NCBI GenBank assembly: GCA_021776025.1
Contig: JAJFGR010000011.1
Location: 2,631-66,630 of the forward strand
DNA: 64,000 nt
Reading direction: 5' to 3'
Source of the DNA: Alphaproteobacteria bacterium
GTDB taxonomy: Bacteria > Pseudomonadota > Alphaproteobacteria > Micavibrionales > Micavibrionaceae
Positions within the stretch are counted from its first letter, which is position 1. Every line of letters begins with the position of its first letter. Position numbers and translations under genes: made by a program. This document shows positions 5,118-50,211 of this stretch, piece by piece. Below the pieces are notes generated by a model that worked only from the letters and a program-made list of their open reading frames with translations, had not been told where the DNA came from and ran no database searches.

Positions 5118-5297
5118 ACCGCACTAGAATTTATTTTCAAAGGTTTTTTTTAATCAGGCCTGTGGGCAGTTTTAGCGGCCTGCTTGCGGAGAATAAACGA
5201 AGCCGTTAATCTTGATTTGATAGAATTCTTTTTAATGATTGCGATATGCTTTCGCTGGTCAGATCAACATTTCCGAGTAATAGGCTTTTTAAGTTCA

Positions 5298-5810
5298 ATG
5301 CGCAGAACATCTTTTCTTTCAACATTTTTGTTTATCGCTTTAGCTGCGGGTGGTTCTGCCTGTTCCAGTTTGGAAAAACACAGCAATGACGAACCGCAAA
5401 TTGTTGCCGCTCCTGATAATGTGAGCGCTATGCTGGCCAGCGCCGCGGACCGCGCGTCTACTGCGCTTCAGACTTTAGCCGCAATTGAATCCACACGCAC
5501 GCCCGCGACCAATATTGGCCCGGTCGGTAATGCGCCGAGCGAACTTCGCCGGGCGATTACAGTGAACTGGATTGGCCCGGCCGAACCGATTACAAACACA
5601 CTGGCAGAGCGCGCCGGGTACCAGTTTCTGACGATCGGTACACCGCCGCCTATTCCGACGGTTGTTTCCGTTGATGTTGAAAACCGTCCGGTGATTGATG
5701 TGCTGCGCAATATTGGACTGCAGCTTGGCGGGCGCGGTGATATAAAGGTTGATAGCCAGCAACGCATCATAGAAATTCACTACACGCCAAACACTGGTGT
5801 GGGCGGATAG
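5298..5810 (+). CDS. dotD: DotD-like outer-membrane lipoprotein (type IVB secretion)
   Basis: Start trimmed to the ATG at 5298 (MRRTSFLSTFLFIALAAGGSAC, lipobox-like). The 170-aa size matches DotD. The C-terminal secretin-N0-like segment reads ITVNWIGPAEPITNTLAERAGYQF...VIDVLRNIGLQLG. It sits directly upstream of dotC-dotB, as in Legionella dotDCB. Confidence 0.7.
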   Translation: MRRTSFLSTFLFIALAAGGSACSSLEKHSNDEPQIVAAPDNVSAMLASAADRASTALQTLAAIESTRTPATNIGPVGNAPSELRRAITVNWIGPAEPITNTLAERAGYQFLTIGTPPPIPTVVSVDVENRPVIDVLRNIGLQLGGRGDIKVDSQQRIIEIHYTPNTGVGG

Positions 5811-5827
5811 GATAAAGGTCTTTTCCA

Positions 5828-6676
5828 ATGCGCAAACTTTTAGTCCGATACTCTTTGTCGATTTGTGCGGCAGTTTTTCTGTCTCTGCCGTTGCAAAGCA
5901 TTGCTTATGCCACGAGCACTGACGATAAAATGCCGAGCGCGCCCCTGACGCTGAACCAACTTCAAACATTAGAAAAAGAAAACACACTGGGTGAAGATGA
6001 CGGGTTGCCGCTTGATATACGCCGCGATGCGATTAAGGAAGCTGCTATTTCCCTAGGTGCGCGAGGCGGTTTGGCGTGGCGTTCTTTTGCTATCCGCCAA
6101 GAATTGGAACAGCGTGCGCGTTATATGGATAAGGTTTTTGATTTTCGCCAGCTGTTGATTGCCGCGCCTTCGGGCCTGCTCATCGAACCGCCAATTATTA
6201 ATGAATCTATCAATAGTATGTTGATTGAAGGCGATGGTCAGCAAGCGGCAGTTTCCGACAGAATTTATAACATTACTAATAATGCGAAAATCGTCTCAAC
6301 ATCGCGGACATGGCGTAATTATTTAGAAAGAAATTGGGGGGTTGTTGAGTCTCCACCTGACATTTTGCGGCCAGAAGACGATGAGGAACGTGCAATCTGG
6401 GTTGAATTGGTTACTAAGGGCTGGGAAGAAGGCGTGAGGCAGGCAAATGACATTTTTGAAGACGATCTTAATATTCTGATTGCGGACTATGAAGGCATGG
6501 TGCGTTACCGTATGCTGCTAGCTCAAGGCATGGTTTCACAGCCCTATGCTCTTCAAGTTGATCGTGGGATTACCGGCGACGGCATGGAAATGCGCGTTGG
6601 AGACCGCGCAATACAAATCACAGGTGTCCCAGAGTTGATGACAGGATCGGATCAATGGAAGCCCGCAAGCCGATAA
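5828..6676 (+). CDS. dotC: DotC-like type IVB secretion protein
   Basis: 282 aa with a signal peptide. The blocks AISLGARGGLAWRSFAIRQELEQRARYMDKVFDFRQLLI and RYRMLLAQGMVSQPYALQVDRGITGDGMEMRVGDRAIQITGVPEL are collinear with DotC as I recall it. Flanked by dotD and dotB. Confidence 0.75.
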   Translation: MRKLLVRYSLSICAAVFLSLPLQSIAYATSTDDKMPSAPLTLNQLQTLEKENTLGEDDGLPLDIRRDAIKEAAISLGARGGLAWRSFAIRQELEQRARYMDKVFDFRQLLIAAPSGLLIEPPIINESINSMLIEGDGQQAAVSDRIYNITNNAKIVSTSRTWRNYLERNWGVVESPPDILRPEDDEERAIWVELVTKGWEEGVRQANDIFEDDLNILIADYEGMVRYRMLLAQGMVSQPYALQVDRGITGDGMEMRVGDRAIQITGVPELMTGSDQWKPASR

Positions 6677-7812
6677 GCCTCCTCAAACCTGAGGACAATT
6701 TTGCAGAGACATGGCCCGACGAACCCGACAGGTTTGCCGAGGAAATGGTTGACCCTTTGCTGATGTGGTGCGTGAAGCAAAATTCCTCTGACATTACAAT
6801 TCAATCAGACCGCCCGGTTTATAATGAAATTCACGGGTCTCTTTATCCGGGAACTTTTCGTGATATTGATGCGGCAGATATGGCGGTCTTCCTCACGAAA
6901 ATTTATGGCCCAGAGGCTTTGGCGCGCCTTGCTTCCGGACGAGATCTTGATGTTTCATATGAAATTCGGCCAGACCGTTATACCCGCGTTCGTTTTCGGG
7001 TGAACATTACGGCGATCCTTTCCAAGGGGCGCGATTCGGCACAAATTACTATGCGGGTATTGCCTAGCGAACCGCCGACTTTCAAAGATTTGGGGATCGA
7101 GCAGGAAATTATCGATGCTTGGGCCCCTCGGCAAGGGCTTGTGGTTATTACAGGGCCAACAGGTTCGGGGAAAACGACATTGTTGGCGGCCGGTAACCGT
7201 TTTCTGTTAGAGCGGCCTGAGGGCTGCGGTAAAATGCTGACTTATGAAGCACCCATCGAATATGTTTATGACGCGATTAAAAGCCCTCGTTCGCTGGTCT
7301 CCCAAAGTGAAATTCCGCGGCATTTGCCGGATTTTGCCCATGGTGTACGCAATGCGCTGCGCCGGAAGCCTGAGGTTATTCTTGTTGGCGAGTCGAGAGA
7401 CCGGGAAACAATTAACGCCTCTATTGAAGCCTCACAGACTGGACATGCGGTCTATACGACAACGCATACAACAGGCGTTGCAGCAACAATTTCACGGATG
7501 CTCTCTAGTTATGATATGAGCGAGCGCGAAGAACGTGCGATTGCGCTGATGGAAACATTACGCCTGGTTGTTACCCAAGCGCTTGTTCCGCGTCAAGGCG
7601 GGGGCAGATGCGGGGTTCGCGAGTGGATGAAGTTTCCCGATGAAGTTCGGGAAAAGCTGATGGATATGGATTTCACGGAATGGCCAAATGAAATTCAACG
7701 CATGATCAATCAATATGGGCAAACTATGCAAAGATCGGCTGAAATTGTGTTTGAAGCTGGCATTATTGATCGTCGGCATTATCTATTACTCTCCTCCAGC
7801 ACCGGCGCTTAA
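6655..7812 (+). CDS. dotB: DotB secretion ATPase (PilT/VirB11 superfamily)
   Basis: 385 aa. Walker A is GPTGSGKTT, and ILVGESRD and QTGHAVYTTTHT match the Asp and His boxes. Overlaps the dotC stop by 22 nt. Confidence 0.85.
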   Translation: MEARKPISLLKPEDNFAETWPDEPDRFAEEMVDPLLMWCVKQNSSDITIQSDRPVYNEIHGSLYPGTFRDIDAADMAVFLTKIYGPEALARLASGRDLDVSYEIRPDRYTRVRFRVNITAILSKGRDSAQITMRVLPSEPPTFKDLGIEQEIIDAWAPRQGLVVITGPTGSGKTTLLAAGNRFLLERPEGCGKMLTYEAPIEYVYDAIKSPRSLVSQSEIPRHLPDFAHGVRNALRRKPEVILVGESRDRETINASIEASQTGHAVYTTTHTTGVAATISRMLSSYDMSEREERAIALMETLRLVVTQALVPRQGGGRCGVREWMKFPDEVREKLMDMDFTEWPNEIQRMINQYGQTMQRSAEIVFEAGIIDRRHYLLLSSSTGA

Positions 7813-7901
7813 TTTATTCTTACCATCCTAACGCCGCGTTAACATTTACCGCGGTAAGATTTTCTTATATAGTAAAAGCTTAATAAGGAGTTTTTCCGGG
7901 T

Positions 7902-8207
7902 ATGGCCGCTGAACAAATTGAGAATCTTCAAGAAAAAATGAACTGGCACTGGCGCAATTCCATGCGCACGGTTCGATTTTTTGCTTTTGATGCGCGGGCG
8001 TCTTTTCCTGCTATTTTGTTACTGTTTCGCCTTGCGGACTGGCGGTTTTGGGCATTGTTTATCTTTAACCTGTTTTTGTTTCGTTTTCTGGAAAATAAAG
8101 GGCTGACCGTTCCTTCTGCACTTAGAAATTTCAGATCATGGATTGTCGGAGCCGAGAGACCGGGCTGGCTTTCTGTGCAGCGCCGTAAATTCATCGATTA
8201 CGGTTAA
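7902..8207 (+). CDS. icmT: IcmT/TraK-like small inner-membrane protein
   Basis: 101 aa. WHWRNSMRTVRFFAFDARASFPAILLLF followed by TM helices is the IcmT-type pattern. It follows dotB as traK follows traJ in IncI systems. An alternative start lies at Met13 (7938). Confidence 0.65.
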   Translation: MAAEQIENLQEKMNWHWRNSMRTVRFFAFDARASFPAILLLFRLADWRFWALFIFNLFLFRFLENKGLTVPSALRNFRSWIVGAERPGWLSVQRRKFIDYG

Positions 8208-8324
8208 TTTTCTTCTGGTCGATAATCTTAAGTTTTTTCGTAAGCCAACGCTTGTTTTTTAAAACGTGGCGTTTTATGGTCAAAGCTGTTTTCAATCATA
8301 TAAAAGCTTAAGGAACCATTCACG

Positions 8325-9626
8325 ATGGAGATGAACGTCTTTTCAAATTTTCGGGGTTCAAAGTTATGCTATGGCATTTTAGCGATCGCGGCTCTTTTTA
8401 TGACGGCAACAACGACACACGCAGGGTTTGAATGGGTTCCTGCGGACCCGAAAGCCTCCCCGCCCGTTCCTGTTGAAGCACTACCGACGACACCACCGGC
8501 TCAAGATTTGTTAATGCATGAACCACAGCCGCTTAGCCCTTTGCCACCGCTTGATATGGAAGAGCCTAAAAAAGCTGCTATGCCAAAAATTGAACGGCAG
8601 CCCCAGCCTGTGATAAAAATTAAAAAAATGACACCGCTGCCTGCACCGGAACAGAGCGAAGCTGAACACAAACCTGTTACGGCTGAAACACTTATGGACA
8701 CAGAAGCCTTAAAGCTTCCGCCTACTACGCATGTAATTATGCCGGAAGATGCGCCAAACTCAGCGCGCACGGTGCCAGAGGCCGAGATTTTAGAGATTAA
8801 CCCTAGTCCAAAACCTTTACCAGATGGCGGTGACAATACTTTACCTATTATGCCTCTGGCAGACGCCCTTGCACCTACAGAAAGCATTCAGGATGCCGTT
8901 GGTTTCGGCACGGATATACCACTAGCGCTGGCCTTGCAACAAATTGCGCCAGCAGGTTATGCTTTTTCATTCGGTAAAGATATTAACCCGGGGGCAAAGG
9001 TTTCGTGGACTGGCGGAAAAGCTTGGACGGAAGTGCTGCGTGATATGATTGCGCCGCTTGCGTTGCAGGCCAGTGTCCGCGGTAAAGCCATCTTGATTCA
9101 TCATGAGAAGCAATCCGCTGCTGTTTTACCCCCTGCTGATATGATCATAGTCGAGCCCAGCTCCGGCGATGAAACAGCCATCGAACCACCTATTGCTTTA
9201 GAACAAGAGAGCATGCCTAAAATTCGCAGAAATACTATTAAGGACCCAGGCGCGGCGGCGCAGGAGCAGCCTCAGGAAGCCTTAAGCACTATCGAAAGGC
9301 TTCCCCCTACTGAAACCGTAATGTTTGAACCCCGTTTAGCGGCGGCGCAAGCCAGTGTTTGGGAAGCGGAAAAAGGTGATAGTCTTAAACAAACGCTCAG
9401 CAAGTGGAGTAAAAAGGGGGGGTTTGAGATGGAATGGCGCGCGGTACACGACTACACACTAACCTCTGACATTCTGGTTGGCGGTAGCTTTGATAAAGCG
9501 CTAAAGACACTTCTCGTCAATGGCGTTGATGTGCAAAAAGGCCCGTCGCTTACCTATGTGAATGATTCAAAAAAGCCCAGCAGTGCAAAACTTATTATTG
9601 AAGACCGCAAGGATTCCGCATCTTAG
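8325..9626 (+). CDS. secreted Pro-rich protein with a C-terminal TcpQ/PilL-like domain
   Basis: 433 aa. A signal peptide (…ILAIAALFMTATTTHAG) is followed by a ~150-aa Pro-rich linker. A central beta-type module reads VGFGTDIPLALALQQIAPAGYAFSF. The C-terminus VWEAEKGDSLKQTLSKWSKKGGFEMEWRAVHDYTLTSDILVGGSFDKALKTLL matches the TcpQ-like pattern. Confidence 0.5.
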   Translation: MEMNVFSNFRGSKLCYGILAIAALFMTATTTHAGFEWVPADPKASPPVPVEALPTTPPAQDLLMHEPQPLSPLPPLDMEEPKKAAMPKIERQPQPVIKIKKMTPLPAPEQSEAEHKPVTAETLMDTEALKLPPTTHVIMPEDAPNSARTVPEAEILEINPSPKPLPDGGDNTLPIMPLADALAPTESIQDAVGFGTDIPLALALQQIAPAGYAFSFGKDINPGAKVSWTGGKAWTEVLRDMIAPLALQASVRGKAILIHHEKQSAAVLPPADMIIVEPSSGDETAIEPPIALEQESMPKIRRNTIKDPGAAAQEQPQEALSTIERLPPTETVMFEPRLAAAQASVWEAEKGDSLKQTLSKWSKKGGFEMEWRAVHDYTLTSDILVGGSFDKALKTLLVNGVDVQKGPSLTYVNDSKKPSSAKLIIEDRKDSAS

Positions 9627-9657: not shown

Positions 9658-10869
9658 TTAAAGAAAATTCACCAAGCTAAGCTGTGAGACACTTGCAGTT
9701 ACGCGGTATGAGGCCTCGAGCTGAACTTGCAGGGTATTAATCTTAATCGCAACATCATTAATATCCGCATTCTCAACTTCATCAATTGTGTTTAAAAGGA
9801 TGTTTTGATCTCTTTCATAAGAGATTTTTATTCCGTCAATGCGGGCCCGGGCATTTTCAAGACGGAAACGGACCGTATCAAGGCCATCAATTGCATTACT
9901 GACAGAGCTGCTCAGTTCATTAAAAACTTGGAAGAAGTTATCCTTCATTTCCTGTAGTGTCGCGCCAGGAGCACCGTCAGCCAATGTTGGATCGCCGGCT
10001 GTATACGGCTCTGCATAAACATCGGCGATAGGAATAAGATTCTCATTTGTGATAAAAGATGCGGCGACCAGAATATCGCGAAACGGCTCTTCATTTGCCT
10101 GCGCAGTGTAGTCGATCTCAACAGTATCATCCACGCGAATGAAGACATCGCCGACATTTCCTGCGCTCAAAGCTGCAGAATAACCAACGATGGTATCAGT
10201 AATAGCATTTGGGTCTTGCGCTATATCTCTGCTTGTTAGTGCGCTAACCAACTCCGCGCTTGTTAAATTGGTGGCGGCCGGAAGGGTTTCGTCTTTCCAG
10301 TTTGTAATAAGTGTGGAAAGCGCGGCATCCAAAGTGCCATTATCATCATATGGCTGAGTTAAGGTATCAGAACCGCCGAGAAGATATCTGTCACCTTCTT
10401 GAACATTCAACAAGTCACCCATAAATGTGAACAAATTGCCGGCTAAATCTCTCAAGGTTTGTAGATCAACGTCCGGATCTGCCGAGTTATGACCGATCTG
10501 AGTCGTTTCAATGGCCGGCGTGAGCGGATCATCATAGACAATTACATCGCCTTTCTGATGCACACTTTCTTGCGAGAACTGGACAAGCGCGTTGGAAAAA
10601 TTTTCCGCTTGCTGCTGAAATTCTTCAATCGCTGTAAGCATTTGTTTAATTCGTCGCTCTCCGTTCTTAATGTTATCAATATATTTATCAAGCGATTGAA
10701 AATCGGCGCGCGCGCGTTTTGAAGTGAGAATGTCATTATTCAAACCGGCGAAGCTTTGGGTTTTTTTTCCTGTCGCAAGTTGCGTAGTCAGCGAATTTAA
10801 AAGCTGGTTTTGATTGTTCAGCAAATTAATGCGCGATAACGCCTGACCCAATGATGAAATGCCTGTCAT
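9658..10869 (-). CDS. flgL: flagellar hook-associated protein 3 (FlgL)
   Basis: 403 aa. The flagellin-type N-terminus (LLNNQNQLLNSLTTQLATGKK) and C-terminus (LEASYRVTASVSQLSLVNFL) are present. It starts 33 nt downstream of flgK. Confidence 0.85.
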   Translation of the reverse strand: MTGISSLGQALSRINLLNNQNQLLNSLTTQLATGKKTQSFAGLNNDILTSKRARADFQSLDKYIDNIKNGERRIKQMLTAIEEFQQQAENFSNALVQFSQESVHQKGDVIVYDDPLTPAIETTQIGHNSADPDVDLQTLRDLAGNLFTFMGDLLNVQEGDRYLLGGSDTLTQPYDDNGTLDAALSTLITNWKDETLPAATNLTSAELVSALTSRDIAQDPNAITDTIVGYSAALSAGNVGDVFIRVDDTVEIDYTAQANEEPFRDILVAASFITNENLIPIADVYAEPYTAGDPTLADGAPGATLQEMKDNFFQVFNELSSSVSNAIDGLDTVRFRLENARARIDGIKISYERDQNILLNTIDEVENADINDVAIKINTLQVQLEASYRVTASVSQLSLVNFL

Positions 10870-10902
10870 GATCTTCTCCTATTCATAAAATTCTTACAGC
10901 CT

Positions 10903-13323
10903 CTAGCGCACAGCATTTAAAAGCTCCTGAAATAACTCATCAACGGCTGTTAAAACTCTTGCAGAGGCGCTATAGGCGGTCTGTACAATAATTAAATGGC
11001 CAAGTTCTTCATCGAGGTTAACGCCCGATTCATTAAGAATTTGTGTTTGCAGCGCCTCCTGTAATGAAAATTCGTCGATAGTCCGCGCTTCCATAAGAAT
11101 GGCTTCTTGAGAATGCTCGTTGATCATTTTTTGTGAGAAATCAAGGATTGTGAGTGAGCCTAATATCCGTGTCGATATATCCGCATTAGGGCCAAGGTTG
11201 TTTTCTCTGAATGAAAGTGTCGGGATTGGGGGCGCTAGTGATGCATCAGTTTCCGAGCCATAGTTAAAACTATTTATCGGCGAAGAATCAATGATTGCAG
11301 CGCCGGACACTGCGTAGGTTCCGAACATGGCCGAAACAATATTGGCGCCGTCATCAATTGCGGCTCTGGCCGTTAGCGCAGGTGGCGCGCCGTAGCCAGC
11401 TGCGCTGGTATCAAAAGGTCCACCTGTAAATTTTATGTCGCCACCAAAATCTGGGTTATCAAAATTTGTGCCCGGACGAATACGCAAAATTCCATCCAGA
11501 GCAAAATTCACCGTATCCACAGCCAAGCCCGGAACAGCCTGAAGCTTGGCGATAAGCTCAAGATCGGTATCGCCGGGCTCCAGCGTTATACGCACGGCTT
11601 CCGCGTTCCCAACCTGCACGTCGAAATATGGATCTGTTGGCGCGATGGGCGCGCCGGCGTTATCGCTTAAACCAAAAAAGACCAAGCCTGCATCACCAAT
11701 TGACGTTGGGCCCGCGTTGGCATCAATTTCATATGATCCGCGCGTGTTAATAACCAGCTCCCCATTTGTTCCAACACTGGCCACAGCGGCTAAACCAGCG
11801 GGAACACCGGCCAAAGCAATCTCGTTGTTAATATGCGCAACAAGCTGATCAGCGGCTGTTGCCCCTGCAAAACCGTTGGCAATACTCAAATCAACCGTAA
11901 CCGTTGTTGGACCCAGGCCGGTGCGGGGCTCTTCGAAGATGATATGAAAAATATCATTGGGATTGTCCAGAGCTCCATTCGCTGATGTTACTAGAGCCGC
12001 AACATTGGCAAATGGCGTAAGATCACGCCCGCCTGTCATTGTATTTGATGAAACCAGCCCCAGCCATTCCTGCAGGTCCAAACCGCCTGTGTTCAGCAAA
12101 TCGACCTGCGTTGTTATGTCTGTGTTTTCAGCCTGTTCGAAATCTACGGCCCCAAAACCAAACTCGAGGATGCGGCGAACAACTTCATTGGAGCCAGTCG
12201 CAAGCGATGCTCCATATGTCCCATCCTTAAGAAGGCTTGGGTCATTCACGATATTGTCATTGACCTGAATGACGGCTGAAAAACCAACATATGACACGGG
12301 CGTTTCTGGAACCGTTGTCGGGTCCGGCGCTGTGTCCAACGGAATGACGCCAAAGGCGTCTGTAAATAAACGCAGACCCTGCGTTTCCATACGCAGCGCC
12401 ATTTTGTGGGCCACCTCATCAAGTTGCGCCATTTGTTTTGGAAAAGTTTCATCGCGGAGCGTTATTAATCCGCCCAGCTTACCGCCAGGTGAAAGCGTTG
12501 TTATATCTGAGGAGAATGTGGTGGTGTCATTTGGATCGCCGACAAAGACACCATTGGCAGAATCAGGATAGAAACTGGTCGCGGCAAGGGGCGTAGGATT
12601 AAACGTAAATTGCTGCGCCTTATCCGATGCGATCTCAACGCCACGGTTGGTCTGCACAACCAAAACGCCATCACCACGCTGAAAAAAACTGACCTCAATT
12701 AAACCAGATAATTCTTGAATTGCGCTATCGCGTCCATCTTCATAAAAAGCCGTTGAACGGCCCAGATTTAGATTATTCTTAACCTCATTATTCAAATCTG
12801 CAATCTGTTCCAAAAGATCATTAATGCGCGTTACGGTAGTTTGCATCTCACTTTGTGCATCATTACGAAGCGCTGAGATCAGGTCAGAGAGATCATTAAT
12901 CTTATTAGCTGTATCAGCGGCTTGGTCAATTGTAAGCGCCTGAAGGAACGCGTCTTCCGGACTGTCGGCAAGCGCTGAAAAACTACCCTGCAAACGGGCA
13001 ATTTCTGCCGCTACAGATAGCTCCTGATCTGGTGGTCCATGGAATTGGATGATTCTGTTCAGGTACGTTTGCTGTACATCCAGCTCGCCAACTGCGCTCA
13101 CCTGTGTCCAGAGATCCCGCTCCAAGTTTAAATCAACATTGCGCAAAATTGTTTCAGCGCGAACCCCGGCCGTAACACCTTGAAGTGCTTGAGCACTTTG
13201 CGGCATAATTTTCCGGGAATATCCTGGCGTACCCACATTGGCTACGTTATTGGAAATCACATCAATTTGCTGCTGCGACACGCGCAAACCGGCTAGAGCT
13301 GAGTTTAGGCTGGCGATGCCCAT
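10903..13323 (-). CDS. flgK: flagellar hook-associated protein 1 (FlgK)
   Basis: 806 aa. The N-terminus MGIASLNSALAGLRVSQQQIDVISNNVANVGTPGYSRK and the C-terminus VNLDEELGHLIIVQTAYSASARVL are canonical FlgK. Confidence 0.9.
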   Translation of the reverse strand: MGIASLNSALAGLRVSQQQIDVISNNVANVGTPGYSRKIMPQSAQALQGVTAGVRAETILRNVDLNLERDLWTQVSAVGELDVQQTYLNRIIQFHGPPDQELSVAAEIARLQGSFSALADSPEDAFLQALTIDQAADTANKINDLSDLISALRNDAQSEMQTTVTRINDLLEQIADLNNEVKNNLNLGRSTAFYEDGRDSAIQELSGLIEVSFFQRGDGVLVVQTNRGVEIASDKAQQFTFNPTPLAATSFYPDSANGVFVGDPNDTTTFSSDITTLSPGGKLGGLITLRDETFPKQMAQLDEVAHKMALRMETQGLRLFTDAFGVIPLDTAPDPTTVPETPVSYVGFSAVIQVNDNIVNDPSLLKDGTYGASLATGSNEVVRRILEFGFGAVDFEQAENTDITTQVDLLNTGGLDLQEWLGLVSSNTMTGGRDLTPFANVAALVTSANGALDNPNDIFHIIFEEPRTGLGPTTVTVDLSIANGFAGATAADQLVAHINNEIALAGVPAGLAAVASVGTNGELVINTRGSYEIDANAGPTSIGDAGLVFFGLSDNAGAPIAPTDPYFDVQVGNAEAVRITLEPGDTDLELIAKLQAVPGLAVDTVNFALDGILRIRPGTNFDNPDFGGDIKFTGGPFDTSAAGYGAPPALTARAAIDDGANIVSAMFGTYAVSGAAIIDSSPINSFNYGSETDASLAPPIPTLSFRENNLGPNADISTRILGSLTILDFSQKMINEHSQEAILMEARTIDEFSLQEALQTQILNESGVNLDEELGHLIIVQTAYSASARVLTAVDELFQELLNAVR

Positions 13324-13406
13324 AGTTTATCCTTGCTTTTATCTCTATTCATCATGTGAGCAAATCATGACAAAGGCTGTCTTTTTGCTCATTCCAAAGA
13401 TAACTA

Positions 13407-13422
13407 TGCAAGGGAAATGCCA
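13407..13422 (-). promoter_or_regulatory. sigma-54 (-24/-12) promoter upstream of flgK
   Basis: The minus strand reads TGGCAT-TTCCC-TTGCA against the consensus TGGCAC-N5-TTGCW. It lies ~84 nt upstream of the flgK ATG, in the 128-nt gap after the preceding gene. Confidence 0.6.
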
Positions 13423-13451
13423 ATTTACGGCTCATCGATAATGGTAGAATA

Positions 13452-15314
13452 TTATTCTAATTCAAGGAGTTTACCCTGAAGTATCTCAGCATCGGTAATC
13501 AGTTCTTGTTCAACCATACCAGACATGAGCATTTCACGGCGCAGCGCGGCTTCATAATGGTCGCGCTGTTGCATCAATCCGATCGCTTCAAGTGAGGCAT
13601 TGATACGGTCGACATTAACCGGCTTGTCATAAAGATTGGTGTAGAAATTCGGGTTTTGATAGAGTTTTTTTGTCAGAATGTCCATCTGCGCATAATAGCT
13701 TGGATTTTCACCGACCATCTCTTCAATATTTTCATCAATTTCTGCGGCATTGGCCCCACCAACCAGTTCACGCAGCATCGTCTTCATATACGCCCAACCA
13801 GGCTCAACATCGGCAGGCGGAGCAGGAGCCTGCGCTTTCAGGGCAATCAGCTTTGTATAAGAGTTATGTGCGAGATTATTTAAAGCCATATGCTGGCGGC
13901 TTTGTTTAAAATATTTTGCGTTTTTCTTCAGCGCGTTTTCTGACGCAAACGAAAAAGCATCGGTCCAATAAAGGTTACGGGCAAGGGCAACAACGTCGGT
14001 TTCATCATCACTCAGCTCCGCATTTGTAAAATCAACATCCAGAGTCAGGGGCAGTTCAACTGTCCGCGCGTAATCAATGTCTTTGTTCACACGCAGTTGA
14101 TCAATAGCGCCGAATGGAGGGGTTACAGGGGGTACTAGAGGGGGTAGGCCATGATCACAGAGAAGTCCCAGACCGGCGTTATTATCATTTGGGTCACAGT
14201 ATATTGTTCTAAATTGTTGCAGGCGGTTTTTGAAATCGCTTTCAGGACCTAAGGCTGTGCCCATGTTAGAGCGGTTGGATTCACTCTCCATCAAAATATC
14301 ATTGAGGACCATCTGATCATGCGCGACTTTTTCTTCAACCGTGGCAAGAGAGCGTGCAAAAGATCCAATTCGGCACATTTGGTCGCTCGGATGGTAATCC
14401 TTCACTGCCTCAGCCTTCAGCTTTTGATGAAGACGCTGAACTTCCAGCTGATCTTTGGCATCGAAAAACATTCCAACCATTGCGACCTGCTGCATGGCGA
14501 TGCCAGAGAACTGCTCCGTCATAAGCTGGAGTCCCATAACATAATTATTTACGATATTATTATTTTGAGCATTAACAGCACCTGTATTGCAGGTGCTATG
14601 GGGATAAGGCGAACAGTTGCTTTCTGTGAAGGTGTTCAAATTTGTGCCGGGAAGATCACCCCCGCCTGGCGCGGATAGCACTTTAATAACTGCCGGGCTT
14701 TGATGGTTTCTGGCATCGCTGGCAATGTCGCGGCTGTAAAAAGCAACCTGCACGGCGTTTGATTTATCGCCTGAGGGCCGCAATCCCGTTTCTTCGAAAA
14801 GGCCGGCCCAGTCTGTGCGGGTTTCAATATTTTGCCCAGAAGCACGAATTTCAATATTCGCAAAAGGCTCAGAATCCTGGCCTTTCACAGAAACAGCGCC
14901 TGTGCGCGCATCAATTTTAAGCAAAAGTGAAAGCGTGCGCTTTTCTTCACTGATTGAGAAGTCATAGATCACGTTCGAAGCAATATTTTCGAAGTCTTTC
15001 GGTACAGGAATGTTGAGATAGCCATGCTGGTCGACTACGGATGTTATCTGCGACATATCTGCGCTATCAAAAAGAATGCTGTACACAACTATGGCGCCGG
15101 GTTCAAAGCCGGAGAGCGCGGCAAAATATTTTTCCGGCGCTGTCTTTTTTTCAAACAATGATGCGTTGGCCGAATATCCGCTGAGCCCTAAAAGAAGACA
15201 AGCGCAAAACAAGCATATTGAGCCCGCGGCTAAAAGCGCGCTTTTTCTACTGTGCTTATTTCGCTTTAGAATCATAAAATTGTTCCATTTATTACTGCTG
15301 TGAGCTGAGCTCAT
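13452..15314 (-). CDS. secreted protein, paralog 3 of a three-member family of unknown function; carries an extra ~230-aa N-terminal domain
   Basis: 620 aa with a signal/anchor sequence. It shares with the two upstream genes the blocks FFDAKDQLEVQR...KDYHPS..C.IGS, FRTIYCDPNDNNAGLGLLCDH, VNKDIDYARTVE and KKLYQNPNFYTNLYDKPVNVDR. The start may be 15314 or 15275. Confidence 0.6.
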   Translation of the reverse strand: MSSAHSSNKWNNFMILKRNKHSRKSALLAAGSICLFCACLLLGLSGYSANASLFEKKTAPEKYFAALSGFEPGAIVVYSILFDSADMSQITSVVDQHGYLNIPVPKDFENIASNVIYDFSISEEKRTLSLLLKIDARTGAVSVKGQDSEPFANIEIRASGQNIETRTDWAGLFEETGLRPSGDKSNAVQVAFYSRDIASDARNHQSPAVIKVLSAPGGGDLPGTNLNTFTESNCSPYPHSTCNTGAVNAQNNNIVNNYVMGLQLMTEQFSGIAMQQVAMVGMFFDAKDQLEVQRLHQKLKAEAVKDYHPSDQMCRIGSFARSLATVEEKVAHDQMVLNDILMESESNRSNMGTALGPESDFKNRLQQFRTIYCDPNDNNAGLGLLCDHGLPPLVPPVTPPFGAIDQLRVNKDIDYARTVELPLTLDVDFTNAELSDDETDVVALARNLYWTDAFSFASENALKKNAKYFKQSRQHMALNNLAHNSYTKLIALKAQAPAPPADVEPGWAYMKTMLRELVGGANAAEIDENIEEMVGENPSYYAQMDILTKKLYQNPNFYTNLYDKPVNVDRINASLEAIGLMQQRDHYEAALRREMLMSGMVEQELITDAEILQGKLLELE

Positions 15315-16683
15315 TCTCTAGTTTTTTCTGTAGGTCGACGAGAGTAAGCTCCAATAGAACAGACATATTGGCTTCAGTGCGCAGATAACTTTTAAACAGA
15401 TCAAATTTCTGCATCAAACCGATAGCCTGCAGCGCAACTTTTTTACGCTCTACGTTGGCTGGCTTATCATAGAGGTTGGTGTAGAAGTCCGGGTTTTGAT
15501 AGATTTTTTTCGTCAAAACTTCCATTTGTGCGTGATAGCTAGGCCCGATTTCATCATTCGCATCATTCATACCCAGCAAATGCAGAACATCATTTGGCGG
15601 GCCGTTTGTGTCACTCACACCCAGCTCTGTCAAAATTGCTTCGAGAAAATCTCTAGAACCAGCTGTCCCGGCCGATTTCATAGATGTAATCGCGTTAAAA
15701 GTGTTTTCTGCGACGCTTCGTTTTGCTAGAAGCGCTCGTGAATTCATGTATAGGTCACGCGTAGCACCAAGGGAGTCGCCTGTTTCCTGCTGTCTTAAGT
15801 TTGGGTTAAATTTTGTTGCTGGCGTAATGCGCTGGAAAACAAGATCACCGTACAAATTATTTGCCAGCGCCAAAACTTCTTCTTCGTTATGCGTTAATGT
15901 TGTATCGGTAAAATCAATATCTAAAGTCCAAGGATATTCAACCGTGCGGGCGTAATCGATATCTTTGTTCACGCGATGTTGATCAATAGCGCCGAATTCA
16001 TCGCCGGGGGCTTGGTCATGATCACAGACAAGACCCAAACCGGCGTTATTATCACTTGGGTCACAAAATTTCGTTCTGAATTGTTGCAAGCGGTTTTTAA
16101 AATCCGCGTCCGGACCGGAAGCCGACGATGTATTGGCATTTCCAAGACCTCGGTCCTGAGAACGTTGGCTCATAACATGCGCGTTCAGTTCCGCTTTACG
16201 TTCTGATGCGGCTAGGCTTCTAACGCTTGTGCCGAACTCACACATGCCTGTGCTGGGGTGATAGTCTTTGTGCGCGCGCGCGCGGATTGTTTGCAGAACG
16301 CGCTGGGTTTCCATCTGGTGCTTGGCATCAAAAAATGTGCCAATTATTTCAGTTTGCATCATGGCAACAGCAGAAAGCTGATCGGCCATAAGCATCATAG
16401 CCGGGAGAAGATTATCTTCCCAAAATATAGACACAATCCAAGTTCGGTGCGCTGTGAATTCGTAGGTTACAAACTCTTTGATCAGTGTTCTTGTTTGCGG
16501 CCAGTTAACTGTAACTGAAGTTGTTACACAGGCCACACATTGAGCATACACACCACAACAACATGACGCACTGGCTTGGCGCGTGGGCACCATAAGCACG
16601 AATAAAAGCGTCACAACCCAAAATAGGGTTTTAACTTTTTGTTTTATGTTTAGCGCTGTTAACATTTTTATATCAATCATCAT
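15292..16683 (-). CDS. secreted protein, paralog 2 of the same family
   Basis: 463 aa. Signal peptide followed by a Cys cluster (SCCCGVYAQCVACV). Carries the same conserved blocks (FFDAKHQMETQR, KFCDPSDNNAGLGLVCDH, KKIYQNPDFYTNLYDKPANVER). Confidence 0.6.
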   Translation of the reverse strand: MMIDIKMLTALNIKQKVKTLFWVVTLLFVLMVPTRQASASCCCGVYAQCVACVTTSVTVNWPQTRTLIKEFVTYEFTAHRTWIVSIFWEDNLLPAMMLMADQLSAVAMMQTEIIGTFFDAKHQMETQRVLQTIRARAHKDYHPSTGMCEFGTSVRSLAASERKAELNAHVMSQRSQDRGLGNANTSSASGPDADFKNRLQQFRTKFCDPSDNNAGLGLVCDHDQAPGDEFGAIDQHRVNKDIDYARTVEYPWTLDIDFTDTTLTHNEEEVLALANNLYGDLVFQRITPATKFNPNLRQQETGDSLGATRDLYMNSRALLAKRSVAENTFNAITSMKSAGTAGSRDFLEAILTELGVSDTNGPPNDVLHLLGMNDANDEIGPSYHAQMEVLTKKIYQNPDFYTNLYDKPANVERKKVALQAIGLMQKFDLFKSYLRTEANMSVLLELTLVDLQKKLENELSSQQ

Positions 16684-18056
16684 CTATTCAAATTTTTATC
16701 AATGTCTTTAAAGCTCATGCGCAAGCGTGAAGACAGCAATACTGACATCACCATTTCTTGGCGTAGCTGGCTTTCATAAATTGCCCGGTCCAGCATTAAA
16801 TCAATAGCTTTAAGGGCGGTACCTATCCGTTTTACATTGGCGGGCTTATCATAAAGATTCGCGTAAAAGTCAGGGTTTTGGTAAATTTTCTTGGCGAGAA
16901 TCTCGAGCTGTGAATAATAGCTGAAATCTATATATTGGGTTCCACCATCTAGTTCATAGCCATCTCTAAGCCCCATATATTGGTCTATTTCTTCTTCAGG
17001 AATGCCCAGCTCTGTCATCACGGCGCCTAAAAACATATACGTATTTGTTGTCGCCGGATTCTGCGGGTCCAATAAACCACCCACGCTCCCTAAGCTTTTT
17101 AAAGCCACAATACTGTTGAAAGAATTTTCAGCCACGGCGCGTTTTGCCGCAACGGAACGCAGCGTTAGATAAAGCCCAGGCTTACTATCATCAAGAAGAC
17201 TGGTACGGCTAATATCGCGGAAAAGAATGTTATGGCCATAAAGGTTGTTCCCTAAAGCTTGTATATCAATTTCATCTGGAGAGCCAACGTCGAGGGGTCT
17301 GGATATATCAAGGATCCGGCGGTTTTCGACAGCCCGTGTATAATCAATGTCGATATTAACGCGCTCTTTTGCCACGGCTAGGGAAGTGCCCGCTTTCGTA
17401 GCGGCATCTCGTTTAGGCAGACAGACCGTACTCAAACCTGTACCGGTACCGGCGCCCAGCCAATTGTTGTCTCTTTCATCACAATAAACTTCGGTAAATT
17501 GAGTCCAGCGCGCTATTTTATCCGATAATGCGCTTGGCGCGCCGGCCATATTACGGCGGCCAAGATGGCGGGCGAGTTGGCGCTGGCCCATGACTTGCGC
17601 ATTATAACGGGCAACGCTTTCGGAGTGGCCCAAAGACCGAACATTTGTTCCGAAAGCACAAAAGGTTGTGCTGGGTTGATAATCTTTATGTGCCTGAACC
17701 TGCAGTTCTTGAAAAAGCCGCTGGGTTTCGAGTTGGTGTTTTGCATCAAAAAACTTGCCGATAATCATTGTTTGCTGCATTGCCACGGCAGACATCTGTT
17801 CGGTGAAAAGCTGCAACGCCGGTAAAATTTGCTCTAAAAAGAACGTGTTTGTGAGCCAGTCACGATGCTGATTAAACTCTTGCGCTATATGGTTTGTAAT
17901 ATCTATTCTGCCTTGTTCGTGCGCAGCAGGTAACGGACAAGCAAAGGCATGGGCGGGTTTTACGGGAATTACAGAGACAGAGGCAAAGATGAAAAGTGCA
18001 CCTAAAACGGTGCAAAGTGTTTGTCCAAAAAACCGAATGGAAAAAACCTTTTTCAT
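16680..18056 (-). CDS. secreted protein, paralog 1 of the same family (possible IcmX/TraW-type component, unverified)
   Basis: 458 aa with a signal peptide ending VKPAHA. Carries the blocks FFDAKHQLETQRLFQELQVQAHKDYQPSTTFCAFGT, EVYCDERDNN and KKIYQNPDFYANLYDKPANVKR. It has a 4-nt ATGA overlap with paralog 2. Confidence 0.6.
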   Translation of the reverse strand: MKKVFSIRFFGQTLCTVLGALFIFASVSVIPVKPAHAFACPLPAAHEQGRIDITNHIAQEFNQHRDWLTNTFFLEQILPALQLFTEQMSAVAMQQTMIIGKFFDAKHQLETQRLFQELQVQAHKDYQPSTTFCAFGTNVRSLGHSESVARYNAQVMGQRQLARHLGRRNMAGAPSALSDKIARWTQFTEVYCDERDNNWLGAGTGTGLSTVCLPKRDAATKAGTSLAVAKERVNIDIDYTRAVENRRILDISRPLDVGSPDEIDIQALGNNLYGHNILFRDISRTSLLDDSKPGLYLTLRSVAAKRAVAENSFNSIVALKSLGSVGGLLDPQNPATTNTYMFLGAVMTELGIPEEEIDQYMGLRDGYELDGGTQYIDFSYYSQLEILAKKIYQNPDFYANLYDKPANVKRIGTALKAIDLMLDRAIYESQLRQEMVMSVLLSSRLRMSFKDIDKNLNR

Positions 18057-18287
18057 ACCTCTTTATATAGCCCCGTATTATTTTATAAATAACCGCCCTG
18101 ACTGCTCTTTTTTGAAAATACAGACAGAAAATTTGCTCACTTCTTTTTATTGTATCACAAGCTTTTACAAAAAGGCACGTTTCAAAATGTGAAAAATTTC
18201 AAACATCGCTGTTGCCGCGCTTGTGTCCAAGCCTATTTTACTACAGTATAGTACAGTTATTTTATCACATGTAGGCGTTAAATCAGC

Positions 18288-18989
18288 ATGGCTGCCAAAA
18301 AACAAAAAGCTCAAAAGACCGCTCAGCGGACTGCTAAAGATGAAAAAAGTGATGGTGCTGGTGAAGACAATACCGGTCTTGGCAAAGTTGTCATTCGTAA
18401 TGAATTTTACCGTGATGGCTATCGTAGTCTTTTGCGGCTATCCTTACTGCAAGGCCTTATTATACTTGCTCTTTTAGGAGCTATGTATTTCGTCATTCAG
18501 ACCCACCAGCCGGAAAATCGTTATTTTGCGACGACCGAGGATGGCCGCCTTGTGCCGATGGTTGCTTTAAATGAGCCAAATTTAAGTACGCCGGCGCTGA
18601 TGTCATGGGTCGCACAGGCCGCAACAGAAGTGATGACCTTCGGTTTTAATGACTATCGGCGGCGATTGCAGGAATCTTCCAGAACCTTTACCCGCCGCGG
18701 CTGGGAAAGCTTTACTGGCGCTTTGCAGCGTTCACGGATTATTGAAATGGTTGAAGCCAATCAACAGGTCGTCACGGCTGCCCCGCAAGGTGCACCAATT
18801 GTGATTTCAGAAGGGCTTGTTGCCGGGCGCTATCAATGGCAGGTGCAGCTGCCGCTTATTCTGACCTATCAATCCGGGGCGCGCACACGAACCGACAAAC
18901 TTCTGGTTACGATCGTTATTGTACGGGTTCCGAGACTAGAAAGCCCCAATGGCGTCGGTATCGAACAATGGGTTGCCGTACCCCGATAG
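18288..18989 (+). CDS. icmL: DotI/IcmL (TraM-like) type IVB inner-membrane protein
   Basis: 233 aa. A basic N-terminus and one TM helix precede a periplasmic domain (ALMSWVAQAATEVMTFGFNDYRRRLQESSRTFTRRGWESF...) typical of the IcmL family. It comes first in the icmL-K-E-G order. Confidence 0.8.
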   Translation: MAAKKQKAQKTAQRTAKDEKSDGAGEDNTGLGKVVIRNEFYRDGYRSLLRLSLLQGLIILALLGAMYFVIQTHQPENRYFATTEDGRLVPMVALNEPNLSTPALMSWVAQAATEVMTFGFNDYRRRLQESSRTFTRRGWESFTGALQRSRIIEMVEANQQVVTAAPQGAPIVISEGLVAGRYQWQVQLPLILTYQSGARTRTDKLLVTIVIVRVPRLESPNGVGIEQWVAVPR

Positions 18990-41710: not shown

Positions 41711-42757
41711 ATGTTTGCAGTTGAAAATTTAAAAAGTGATAAGCCGTTTCTCGATGCGTTAAGCGGGGTGAAGGCTGAGAGGCCGCCATTTTGGTTTATG
41801 CGACAAGCGGGGCGATATCTGCCGGAATATCGAGAACTTCGGGCTGAAAAAGGTGGGTTTTTGGCGATGGCTATGGATCTGCAAACAGCGTGTGAGATTA
41901 CGATGCAACCCATTCGGCGTTTTGGGATGGATGCGGCAATTATTTTTTCTGATATTCTCACCGTGCCGATGGCGTTGGGGCAGCATTTGGAATTTGTTGA
42001 AGGGGAAGGGCCGAAGCTGGGAGAGTTGAATGTTGGGGCTTTGAATTATTCTAATTTTTCAAAGCTTGATCCGGTTTATGAAGTTTTGGAGAATGTGAAA
42101 ACTGCGTTGCAGGTGGAGGGGTTTAATCATACATCATTGATTGGTTTTTCCGGGGCGCCCTGGACGGTGGCAACTTACATGGTTGAGGGTGGATCATCGC
42201 GTGATTTTCTCAAGACGAAATTGATGGCGTATCAGGATCCGCAAGGGTTTGGGGCGTTGATTAATATGCTGGTTGAGGCGACAGCAACATATTTGATTAA
42301 TCAGATTAATGCGGGCGCTGAGGTTGTACAGATTTTTGATAGTTGGGCGGGAGCGCTCGATGCGGATGGATTTAAACGCTGGTGCGTTCAGCCCACACGT
42401 CAGATTGTGGAGATGGTTCGAGCGGCGCATCCACATGTGCCGATCATCGGATTTCCAAAAGGCGCGGGGTATAATTATTTGGCTTATGCGCAAAATACAG
42501 GGGTTACAGCATTGGGGCTTGATCAGCATGTACCGACAGATTGGGCGGCGCGGGCGTTGCAATCGCTCATGCCGGTGCAGGGTAATCTTGATCCTCTTGC
42601 ACTTATGGCAGGCGGGGATGTTATGGCGTTAGCTGTGGAGAAAATAAAAGGTGATTTGTCTGTAGGGGCTTTCGTATTTAATTTGGGTCACGGAATTCAC
42701 AAAGACACGCCGGTGGAGCATGTTGAAGCCTTAGTGAAAATGATCAAAGGTGAATGA
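41711..42757 (+). CDS. hemE: uroporphyrinogen decarboxylase
   Basis: 348 aa. Carries PPFWFMRQAGRYLPEYR and IIFSDIL. Confidence 0.9.
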   Translation: MFAVENLKSDKPFLDALSGVKAERPPFWFMRQAGRYLPEYRELRAEKGGFLAMAMDLQTACEITMQPIRRFGMDAAIIFSDILTVPMALGQHLEFVEGEGPKLGELNVGALNYSNFSKLDPVYEVLENVKTALQVEGFNHTSLIGFSGAPWTVATYMVEGGSSRDFLKTKLMAYQDPQGFGALINMLVEATATYLINQINAGAEVVQIFDSWAGALDADGFKRWCVQPTRQIVEMVRAAHPHVPIIGFPKGAGYNYLAYAQNTGVTALGLDQHVPTDWAARALQSLMPVQGNLDPLALMAGGDVMALAVEKIKGDLSVGAFVFNLGHGIHKDTPVEHVEALVKMIKGE

Positions 42758-42761
42758 GGCG

Positions 42762-43829
42762 ATGGACGAAAAAGTTGCCGTGGTATTATTTAATCTTGGT
42801 GGCCCGGATTCAAAGGCGACGATCCAGCCGTTTCTATTTAATTTCTTCATGGATAAAAACATTATTTCTTTGCCTGCGCCGTTGCGGTTTTTACTTGCTA
42901 AGATGATTAGTAAAAAACGCTCGAAACGTGAAGCCGGAGAGAGTTACGGTGAGCTTGGTGATAAATCGCCGCTTTTGGAAAATACTAATAAACAAGCCAA
43001 GGCGCTGGAAAATGTGCTAGACGGCGATGAGCAAGAATTTAAAACGTTTGTGTGCATGCGCTATTGGCATCCGATGGCGCCGCAAATTGTGCGTGAAGTT
43101 CAGAATTGGGGGGCCGATAAAATTGTGCTCTTGCCGCTTTATCCGCAATTCTCAACGACCACGACGAAATCTTCGCTGGAGGTTTGGAATAAGGCTTTGC
43201 ATCAAGTTGGTCTTGATATTCCAACTTCAATGGTCTGTTGTTATCATGGGAATGATGGGTTTGTGAAAGCGTCAGCTGCAAATATTCGCGTGAAATATAC
43301 GCAAGCGATTAAGGACGGACATGAAAGTCCGCGTGTGCTTTTTTCTGCGCACGGTCTGCCGGAAAAAATCATCAAGAACGGTGATCCTTATCAATGGCAG
43401 TGTGAGCAAACGGCGGTAGCGATTGCGGAAGAATTGGCTATAGAAAATATCGATTGGCAGATCTGTTATCAATCGCGCGTTGGGCCAATGAAATGGATTG
43501 GCCCTTCTGTTGATGAAGCTTTAGCAAAAGCGGTGCAGGATAAAAAGGCTGTGGTGATTTATCCGCACGCCTTTACACAAGAACATGTTGAAACCCTTGT
43601 TGAGCTTGATATTGAGTATAAAGAAGAAGCCGAAAAAATGGGACAAAAAGGATATTATCGTGCGCAGACGGTGGGAACGCATAGTGATTTTATTGACGGG
43701 TTGGCAGGATTGGTGAAAGAGCATTTGGACAAAGAAGGTATTATGGACGAAGGATTTGAATCGCCTTGTCCATCCGAGTTCCGGCAATGCTGTATGCGCG
43801 GTTTTGAAGTACAAAGAAGGGCGGCTTAG
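42762..43829 (+). CDS. hemH: ferrochelatase
   Basis: MDEKVAVVLFNLGGPD… An alternative GTG start lies at 42750. Carries LLPLYPQFSTTT and FSAHGLP. Confidence 0.9.
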   Translation: MDEKVAVVLFNLGGPDSKATIQPFLFNFFMDKNIISLPAPLRFLLAKMISKKRSKREAGESYGELGDKSPLLENTNKQAKALENVLDGDEQEFKTFVCMRYWHPMAPQIVREVQNWGADKIVLLPLYPQFSTTTTKSSLEVWNKALHQVGLDIPTSMVCCYHGNDGFVKASAANIRVKYTQAIKDGHESPRVLFSAHGLPEKIIKNGDPYQWQCEQTAVAIAEELAIENIDWQICYQSRVGPMKWIGPSVDEALAKAVQDKKAVVIYPHAFTQEHVETLVELDIEYKEEAEKMGQKGYYRAQTVGTHSDFIDGLAGLVKEHLDKEGIMDEGFESPCPSEFRQCCMRGFEVQRRAA

Positions 43830-44276
43830 ATGCAAGAAATTTTTTCTCAAAATTATGAATGGTTACGGGCGCTCCATATTATCAGTGTGATTTCATGGAT
43901 GGCGGGGATGCTCTATCTGCCGCGGTTGTTTGTTTACCATGCCGATAGTGAGGTTGGATCGGATAAATCCGAGACATTTAAAATCATGGAATATCGCCTG
44001 TTAAAATTTATTATCAATCCGGCGATGATGGCGGCCTGGATTTTGGGGCTATCTATGCTGTATGCCAATCCGGCGATGATGGAGGATGGATGGATTCACG
44101 TGAAACTTTTATTGGTGCTGATTATGTCCGGCGTTCATGGGATGCTGGCGAAGCAGGTTAAAGTTTTCGCGAGAGATGAGAATGAAAAAAGCGCTAAATA
44201 TTTCCGCATTCTCAATGAAGTGCCTACTGTTTTGATGATTGCGATCGTTATTTTAGCGGTTGTGCAGCCTTTTTAA
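43830..44276 (+). CDS. hemJ: protoporphyrinogen IX oxidase HemJ-type membrane protein
   Basis: 148 aa with 4 TM helices. Carries LRALHIISVISWMAGMLYLPRLFVYH. It starts on the base after the hemH stop. Confidence 0.8.
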   Translation: MQEIFSQNYEWLRALHIISVISWMAGMLYLPRLFVYHADSEVGSDKSETFKIMEYRLLKFIINPAMMAAWILGLSMLYANPAMMEDGWIHVKLLLVLIMSGVHGMLAKQVKVFARDENEKSAKYFRILNEVPTVLMIAIVILAVVQPF

Positions 44277-44564
44277 GATTTTCGAAACCATAATCATTTA
44301 GATTGAGATAAGTGCTTGACAGCATTTCACCCTTATGGTTAAAGGGAAGTGTCTTTAAGGATAAATCCACAAAATTTTGGGACGTTTTGATTTGAGCCGC
44401 GCAGAGCACGGCCGCGTATTTGAGAAAATAAACGCCTTTAGAGCAGTTATTTAAGGTAAGCCCACTAGAACGTATATATATAGCGCGATAGAGCACTTTC
44501 CCGAAAAGTTTAAGAGTAAACCCCAGAAATACCATAATTATAACACTAACAGGACGAAAGTCTT

Positions 44565-50209: not shown

Positions 50210-50211
50210 TG

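Follow-up and report, generated by a model that had tools for sequence, protein, structure and literature searches.

Why does a lone pair of flagellar genes, flgK and flgL, lie inside a secretion locus? The question is raised by a stretch of 64,000 nucleotides, here called the window (contig C3:2631-66630), from the genome (2.3 Mb, 99.98% complete) of a Micavibrio-like predatory bacterium of the order Micavibrionales. In this window, the flgK-flgL pair occupies 9658-13323 of the minus strand. It is placed between the dotD-dotC-dotB-icmT-TcpQ-like arm of a Dot/Icm-type type IVB secretion system (T4BSS) and three secreted paralogs followed by the icmL operon. The pair is likely an ordinary single-copy late flagellar operon of the sigma-54/FlbD type, and its unusual position an ancient, vertically inherited accident of genome history. 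The genes are ordinary, and their context is the useful part. Below, families and genera are given by codes (f1, g49 and so on), genomes by G-numbers and fetched loci by L-numbers; the window's own family is f1.

Identity and copy number of flgK and flgL

The pair and the region immediately upstream of it are composed as follows.

10903-13323, minus strand: flgK, hook-associated protein 1 (HAP1), 806 aa, sole FlgK of the genome
9658-10869, minus strand: flgL, hook-associated protein 3 (HAP3), 403 aa, beginning 33 nt past flgK
13324-13451, minus strand: 128-nt gap between the last paralog and flgK, without a detected terminator-like site
13407-13422, minus strand: predicted sigma-54 (-24/-12) promoter, TGGCATTTCCCTTGCA, 83 nt 5' of the flgK ATG

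The 806-aa protein passes the FlgK equivalog TIGR02492 with 257.5 bits, compared to a cut-off of 170.75. It carries Flg_bb_rod (PF00460, residues 6-35), FlgK_D1 (PF22638, residues 100-315) and Flg_bbr_C (PF06429, residues 761-803), and its orthologs across the order are 33-78% identical. The 403-aa protein has the ends expected of FlgL, Flagellin_N at residues 4-106 and Flagellin_C at residues 323-403, and FlgL follows flgK in nearly all related loci that extend that far. An earlier reading, made from the DNA letters by themselves (the sequence-only reading), had placed FlgK and FlgL between the icmT/TcpQ-like genes and the icmL operon, and both the open reading frames (ORFs) and the profile matches agree with it. 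It had also seen no other flagellar gene in 64 kb. Pfam scans of the major ORFs of the window bear this out, since they returned no further flagellar gene, only T4BSS parts and housekeeping genes (aroE, maf, hemE, hemH, rho, mnmE, gidA, gidB, parA, parB, leuS and others).

The search was extended to the whole genome. Seven frames matched the rod domain, and only that of the window is of the FlgK type; the remaining ones (FlgE, FlgF/G, FlgB/C and one more) are located on contigs C4 and C5. Flagellin_C matched two frames, FlgL and a flagellin on C4, and on contig C3 both searches match only flgK and flgL. A second flgK or flgL elsewhere, which would make the pair a co-opted paralog, was thus not found by the genome-wide rod-domain and Flagellin_C searches. 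The other flagellar genes, whose location the sequence-only reading had left as a question, lie mainly on contig C4, which carries fliF, fliG, motA, flgI, flgD, flgE, two flagellins, flbT, flaF and a FlbD-type activator. Alphaproteobacteria usually have flgE next to flgK-flgL at one end and flbT/flaF at the other; these neighbours are on C4, with the pair missing between them. Judged from these searches, flgK and flgL are the only copies in an organism with a full-looking flagellar gene set, and from these two facts FlgK is predicted to act in the flagellum, in filament attachment. The pair had been called an orphan, which is correct for its position; it is not correct in kind, as this is the sole flgK-flgL of a flagellated organism. 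In Micavibrio aeruginosavorus ARL-13, FlgK (GMV2433) is likewise distant from other flagellar genes (GMV07xx, GMV17xx; PMC3189940).

One relative has a FlgL ORF of 533 aa (L004:12443-14044), the insert of which resembles FlgK residues 428-552. This suggests a domain exchange between the two junction proteins.

The sigma-54 promoter of flgK

A near-consensus -24/-12 element, TGGCAT-N5-TTGCA, had been noticed by the sequence-only reading in the 128-nt gap. Located at 13407-13422 on the minus strand, it shows GG-N10-GC spacing, with GG and GC exactly 10 nt apart. The pattern TGGCAY-N5-TTGCW has a single match in the window, and this lone match is not significant (0.34 expected; at least one match in 31 of 100 shuffles). 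Genome-wide, the strict pattern has 10 matches against about 1.1 expected under equal base frequencies. Eight of these stand at most 112 nt 5' of a plausible ORF start, one is inside a gene and one has no downstream ORF. The significance of the flgK site comes from its conservation across loci, not from the lone match in the window. The pattern is kept upstream of flgK in the window and in all 11 related public-genome loci, in 17 of 17 additional order-level loci whose FlgK is of the long type (that is, outside family f3), and in 15 of 15 loci of families f7 and f8, three of which repeat earlier ones. The total is 41 distinct order-level non-f3 loci. In these loci, the motif stands 31-144 nt 5' of flgK while the flanking intergenic sequence diverges. 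Outside the order, a TGGCAT-N5-TTGCA site is present in G313 (f171) too. By this phylogenetic footprint, the element is taken to be a real sigma-54 promoter.

The promoter call had been made dependent on rpoN, and rpoN is present in the genome (TIGR02395, 434.7 bits). Three sigma-54 activators were found as well. One of them adjoins fliF, fliG and motA and reaches 713 bits on the Caulobacter FlbD equivalog NF050807, the cut-off of which is 750. Spacing, conservation in 41 loci, rpoN and the FlbD-type activator all uphold the element. In Caulobacter, FlbD together with sigma-54 activates middle and late flagellar genes (PMC3930126). By analogy with the Caulobacter class III genes, flgK-flgL would be a two-gene late operon transcribed from its own sigma-54 promoter, and this promoter would probably be activated by the FlbD-type enhancer-binding protein of the main flagellar cluster.

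Several other sites of this kind were observed. The second-best genome-wide match to the flgK promoter matrix is AAACTGGCACAGCTTTCGCATAGA at C4:139689-139712 (L034:689-712), about 50 nt 5' of flgI. This is a weaker sigma-54-like site, TGGCAC-N5-TCGCA, and flgI heads a run of flgI, three unassigned ORFs, flgD and flgE. Two more sigma-54-type motifs, at C3:69760-69775 and 71103-71118 (L036), lie 3-4.5 kb beyond the right end of the window and precede ORFs of 257 and 199 aa without NCBIfam assignment. They may mark additional RpoN-dependent genes in the vicinity of the T4BSS and flgKL.

Gene order around the pair in the window and across the order

On both sides of the pair and its promoter, the window contains genes that belong, or probably belong, to the secretion system.

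5184-9626, plus strand: dotD, dotC, dotB, icmT and a TcpQ-domain gene, a convergent arm separated from flgL by 31 nt
13452-15314, 15292-16683 and 16680-18056, minus strand: three tandem secreted paralogs of 620, 463 and 458 aa, probably IcmX-like T4BSS components
18149-18195, minus strand: conserved 47-nt block between icmL and the divergently oriented first paralog, candidate promoter/operator
18288-18989, plus strand: icmL/dotI, heading the icmL-dotH-dotG...icmB operon and paired with flgK in the presumed ancestral divergent layout (PF11393, 225 bits; NF038072, 204 bits against a cut-off of 175)

The three paralogs lie upstream of flgK in the same orientation, as had been stated (ORFs at 13452-18056, minus strand, 31-44% identical in pairwise comparison), and the icmL operon diverges from them. 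The sequence-only reading had further held that an IncI-like gene order is interrupted by flgKL. The order is indeed interrupted; it is not interrupted by flgKL alone, as the interrupter is an 8.4-kb unit on the opposite strand composed of the three paralogs and flgKL.

The same gene order as in the window was found in 10 of 12 related loci from metagenome-assembled genomes (MAGs; FlgK 47-78% identical), which are variously labelled Micavibrio, Pseudobdellovibrionaceae or Rhodospirillales. This shared order consists of icmL, then three or four paralogs, flgK and flgL on the opposite strand, and, beyond flgL and convergent with it, the TcpQ-like gene, icmT, dotB and dotC. The doubt that the arrangement might be unique to one assembly is thereby removed, and the flgKL-icmL adjacency is conserved among the relatives.

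For the whole order, 151 genomes of eight families were sampled, and 20 loci around flgK were fetched. All 151 have FlgK and 147 have IcmL; the four genomes that lack an IcmL match are 66-90% complete. Distances were obtained by pairing the listed coordinates of flgK and the best IcmL match in the genomes that have both on one contig (n=84). In 69 of these 84, flgK is at most 13 kb from icmL. The numbers within 13 kb for each family are as follows.

f1: 49 of 50
f2: 1 of 1
f4: 3 of 3
f5: 1 of 3
f7: 2 of 3
f8: 13 of 24

The families differ in what stands between the two genes. No gene intervenes in f7 and in some of f8, where flgK and icmL diverge directly and the -24 element is 90-220 nt from the icmL ATG. 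One or two ORFs with weak paralog-family matches (E 1e-4 to 4e-8) separate the genes in f2 and f4, one clear paralog-family member does so in genus g45 of f5, and two to six paralogs do so in f1. Across the order, the array comprises 0 to 6 genes. Arrays of the paralog family stand beside flgKL in f1, f5 and f8 and in two outside families, and f2 and f4 show weaker matches. The dotDCB-icmT-TcpQ arm on the flgL side is found only in f1. Family f3 is the exception to the general picture: its short FlgK of 495 aa lies beside flbT or other flagellar genes, and no sigma-54 motif was found within 600 nt of it.

Besides the short FlgK of its flagellar cluster, the f3 genome G009 encodes an additional, long FlgK (757 aa; L018:8017-10290) that has a sigma-54 motif of its own. 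The tree shows this copy to be a duplicate that arose within f3, and over its middle part it shares 48% identity with the variable region of a flagellin from the window's genome.

History of the juxtaposition

The distribution outside the order, as defined by family codes and gene trees, indicates how old the juxtaposition is. IcmL was found in 24 of 299 sampled alphaproteobacterial genomes outside the order, and 20 of these 24 have FlgK. Five genomes from four families (f60, f79, f171, f96) have flgK less than 5 kb from icmL.

G202 and G374 (f60): flgK within 5 kb of icmL
G221 (f79): flgK within 5 kb of icmL, one paralog between
G313 (f171): flgK within 5 kb of icmL, two paralogs between
G238 (f96): order flbT-flgK-flgL, then the icmL operon

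In the FlgK tree, the order and these four families form one clade (SH-aLRT, the Shimodaira-Hasegawa-like approximate likelihood ratio test, 97), and the branching inside the order matches its division into families. The DotH sequences of these loci give a tree that broadly agrees with that of FlgK. The shared adjacency and the congruent trees imply one ancient juxtaposition followed by vertical co-inheritance as the simplest history. The position of flgK beside the icmL operon is the old state, as it is shared by six families of the order and four outside. The state of G238 looks intermediate and, together with the f3 clusters, suggests how the juxtaposition arose.

The following course of events is proposed. 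In an ancestor older than the order, the flgK-flgL end of a flagellar cluster would have been placed beside the icmL operon, and the pair and the T4BSS would then have been inherited vertically together. Afterwards, flgKL would have parted from the remaining flagellar genes, and IcmX-like paralogs would have multiplied between flgK and icmL. In f1, the dotDCB-icmT arm would have joined the flgL side, so that the locus was assembled around flgKL. The sequence-only reading had offered two alternatives, a rearrangement that dropped the pair into the secretion locus and a locus assembled around the pair. The latter fits best and the former less so, because the flgK-icmL neighbourhood is the old state, the dotDCB arm occurs only in f1 and the paralog array varies from 0 to 6. 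In such a history, the linkage would need no function of its own.

Reasons for the persistence of the linkage

Several observations weigh against an ordinary operon left in place by history. FlgL is under every curated cut-off (TIGR02550, 23.2 vs 127.2; PRK06008, 65.7 vs 230; Flagellin_N, 22.8 vs 26.6; Flagellin_C, 22.1 vs 23). The curated models suit this divergent FlgL lineage poorly, and owing to these scores the FlgL call is based on the flagellin-type ends and the conserved position 33 nt after flgK. As no terminator-like site was detected between the last paralog and flgK, read-through from the paralog operon is possible. The linkage also outlasts local inversion, flgKL being inverted in place in one f1 genus (G148). 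In genera g35, g47 and g32, flgK is 90-180 kb from icmL, yet it adjoins paralog-family members or lies a few kb from them. Furthermore, the divergent control region in f7 and f8 is very compact, which speaks against pure inertia. In a distant FlgK clade of two families (G268, G321), flgE-flgK-flgL is located 3-4 kb from icmB, and this points either to an independent second event or to a juxtaposition of far greater age. Taken together, the persistence of the linkage exceeds what simple inertia would easily give, and for this reason a regulatory link maintained by selection has to be considered.

Such a link would mean that selection has kept the genes together since flgK and the T4BSS operons share a control region. 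From its site upstream of the flgK promoter, FlbD would in addition control the neighbouring icmL or paralog promoter, either negatively or positively. Whether the secretion machine is armed would then depend on completion of the basal body, and hence on the motile attack phase. The gene identities given above agree with such a link. We consider this unlikely, while giving it real weight. With the -24 element 90-220 nt from the icmL start in f7 and f8, an upstream activator site must overlap the icmL promoter region, and conserved blocks are present in that region in genus g49. In the window, however, 4.6 kb of paralog genes stand between the flgK promoter and icmL, so that the compact arrangement is lost, and no sigma-54 motif precedes icmL or the paralogs. 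The Caulobacter flaN-flbG region reportedly provides a precedent for divergent units sharing ftr elements. FlbD in that organism both activates late genes and represses fliF via ftr sites (PMC3930126). Here, k-mer enrichment over 29 upstream regions returned coding-sequence conservation only and no FlbD-site (ftr-like) motif. Adjacency that endures at 30-40% FlgK identity and through rearrangements, a second kind of flgKL-T4BSS adjacency in the distant FlgK clade, and the status of flagellar genes as attack-phase genes in M. aeruginosavorus (PMC3189940) all favour the link. On the other hand, flgK is at least 92 kb from icmL in 15 of the 84 genomes, and congruent vertical inheritance alone accounts for much of the pattern.

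The placement could also be explained if FlgK and FlgL had been co-opted as T4BSS parts or substrates, for example with IcmX-like tip proteins, instead of or besides their role in the flagellum. The neighbourhood with IcmX-like arrays does persist even where icmL is about 100 kb off. Co-option is nevertheless very improbable, as the genome has no other flgK or flgL and its flagellar set otherwise looks complete, the rod and flagellin-type termini of FlgK and FlgL for flagellar export and assembly are intact, and the promoter is of the flagellar class III type. All 151 genomes of the order have FlgK together with other rod/hook-type matches, and lineages retaining flgKL and the T4BSS without a flagellum were sought among them and none was found. 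An artefact of assembly, or a recent arrival of flgKL in the secretion locus by horizontal transfer, has nothing in its favour beyond the odd placement. It is ruled out for practical purposes by the synteny in independent assemblies (10 of 12 loci; 69 of 84 genomes), several of them single-contig, and the GC content is flat across the region (0.46-0.47) and the FlgK tree follows taxonomy. The preferred explanation is still the late flagellar operon of ordinary function, retained beside the T4BSS by common descent.

The secretion genes and the probably IcmX-like paralogs

The secretion system itself is readily recognised. Models above cut-off include PF16816 (DotD), PF16932 (DotC-type), NF038220 (IcmT), NF038072 (IcmL), PF12293 and PF03743, and PF10671 (TcpQ) matches the gene beside flgL. 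The DotB model TIGR02524 gives 395 bits, which is under its cut-off of 463. Following icmL are DotH and a TrbI-type DotG, and the operon continues to a 1002-aa icmB-like gene. The signature set of a Dot/Icm-type T4BSS (DotD, DotC, DotB, IcmT, IcmL/DotI, DotH/IcmK, DotG) is present at the locus.

The three paralogs have no Pfam or NCBIfam match. Compared to the PDB, neither a single sequence nor a 23-sequence profile gave a match, and no link to IcmX at the sequence level was found in this way. A first model of a paralog from a 14-sequence alignment was unusable (predicted local distance difference test, pLDDT, 48.7), and a 74-sequence alignment was used instead. The resulting AlphaFold model of the 458-aa paralog has a pLDDT of 80.3. 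Its sole probable match in Foldseek is 9ngy, the Legionella DotA-IcmX protochannel (E 2.7e-3, probability 1.00, 317 columns, with a low TM score, the template modelling score, of 0.26-0.29). This match lends weak support to the view that the paralogs are IcmX-like T4BSS components, which is taken as probable. If so, the IncI-like order is interrupted by a T4BSS operon that has flgKL at its tail.

The 47-nt block at 18149-18195, TTTTCACATTTTGAAACGTGCCTTTTTGTAAAAGCTTGTGATACAAT on the minus strand, is recognisably conserved in nine related f1 loci. It resembles neither a sigma-54 nor a CtrA site and is a candidate promoter/operator for the IcmX-like operon. The icmL/paralog intergenic regions contain no CtrA box (TTAA-N7-TTAA) and no sigma-54 motif. 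In the flgK-icmL intergenic regions of genus g49 (L056-L070), the stretch from the -24 element to the icmL start contains two conserved blocks, AACGTCTAGTnnTAACTGnTTA, which holds the near-palindrome TTAACTGnTTAA, and ATTACATA(T)AAA. Both are candidate shared regulatory sites.

Comparison with known systems

The closest model for the operon is the polar flagellum of Caulobacter crescentus, in which the late (class III) genes, including flaN (flgK), depend on sigma-54 and FlbD via ftr sites. As in Caulobacter, a -24/-12 promoter precedes the hook-associated gene, a FlbD-type activator lies by fliF, fliG and motA, flbT and flaF are present, and the operon is arranged divergently with a neighbouring one. 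Unlike in Caulobacter, flgKL is outside the flagellar cluster, and T4BSS operons take the place of the hook operon as its divergent or flanking partners. The k-mer search found no ftr-like site here, and FlbD dependence would follow from the analogy.

In Legionella pneumophila, the Dot/Icm T4BSS and the flagellar regulon are reportedly expressed in the same (transmissive) stage under RpoN, FleQ and FliA. Both organisms combine a Dot/Icm-type T4BSS with a sigma-54-dependent flagellar hierarchy, and both systems plausibly serve a motile stage that seeks host or prey. Flagellar and dot/icm genes are not known to be physically interleaved in Legionella, whereas the linkage here is physical and conserved across the order. 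The IncI1 plasmid R64 has the tra/trb T4BSS order traH-I-J-K ... traM-N-O. This order would be matched here by dotD-dotC-dotB-icmT and, after the interruption, icmL-dotH-dotG. In contrast to R64, the system described here is chromosomal, vertically inherited and near-universal in the order, and it is interrupted by the IcmX-like paralogs and flgKL.

No paper describing the flgKL-T4BSS (flgK-icmL) linkage was found in the literature searched. The ARL-13 genome paper reported no evidence for a type IV secretion system (PMC3189940), and a 2022 study noted pT4SSi in passing in seven marine Micavibrionales MAGs. The present sample indicates that a Dot/Icm-like T4BSS is near-universal in the order (147 of 151) and rare in other Alphaproteobacteria (24 of 299), and that the sole flgK-flgL operon has accompanied it since before the order diversified. 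For annotators, the locus is an example of a lone flagellar pair within a secretion locus that is neither a misassembly nor a secretion component. If regulatory coupling were true, FlbD, which reports basal-body completion, would arm or disarm a Dot/Icm-like machine according to the state of flagellar assembly. Such a hard-wired motility-to-attack switch would be common to Micavibrionales and at least four other alphaproteobacterial families. This raises a question for the culturable M. aeruginosavorus: do FlbD and RpoN also control the secretion machine that probably acts on prey?

Other features of the locus

The genes hemE, hemH, rho, mnmE, gidA, gidB, parA and parB are found at 41711-55230 of the window, 23-37 kb from flgKL, which places the T4BSS/flgKL locus near an origin-proximal gene set. 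This placement agrees with M. aeruginosavorus ARL-13, in which flgK (GMV2433) is among the late gene numbers.

In genera g47 and g35 of f8 (L014 around 11260-11330, L015 around 9450-9560, and L031), where flgK is not beside icmL, its sigma-54 promoter is paired with another sigma-54 motif that faces away from it on the opposite strand. This second motif would drive a gene of about 400 aa that has no assignment, and YkuD, GapR and Sel1-repeat genes come after that gene. Additionally, an ORF of 470-520 aa without assignment follows flgL in the same orientation in f8 (L023:5742-7148, L014:6267-7787), and similarly placed ORFs are seen in the outside families f126 and f179 (L048:5479-6921, L045:6146-7705). 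These ORFs have no match to Pfam or to the paralog family. The two from f8 are related to each other, as are those from f126 and f179 (about 29-30% identity in each case), and the two pairs are unrelated to one another.

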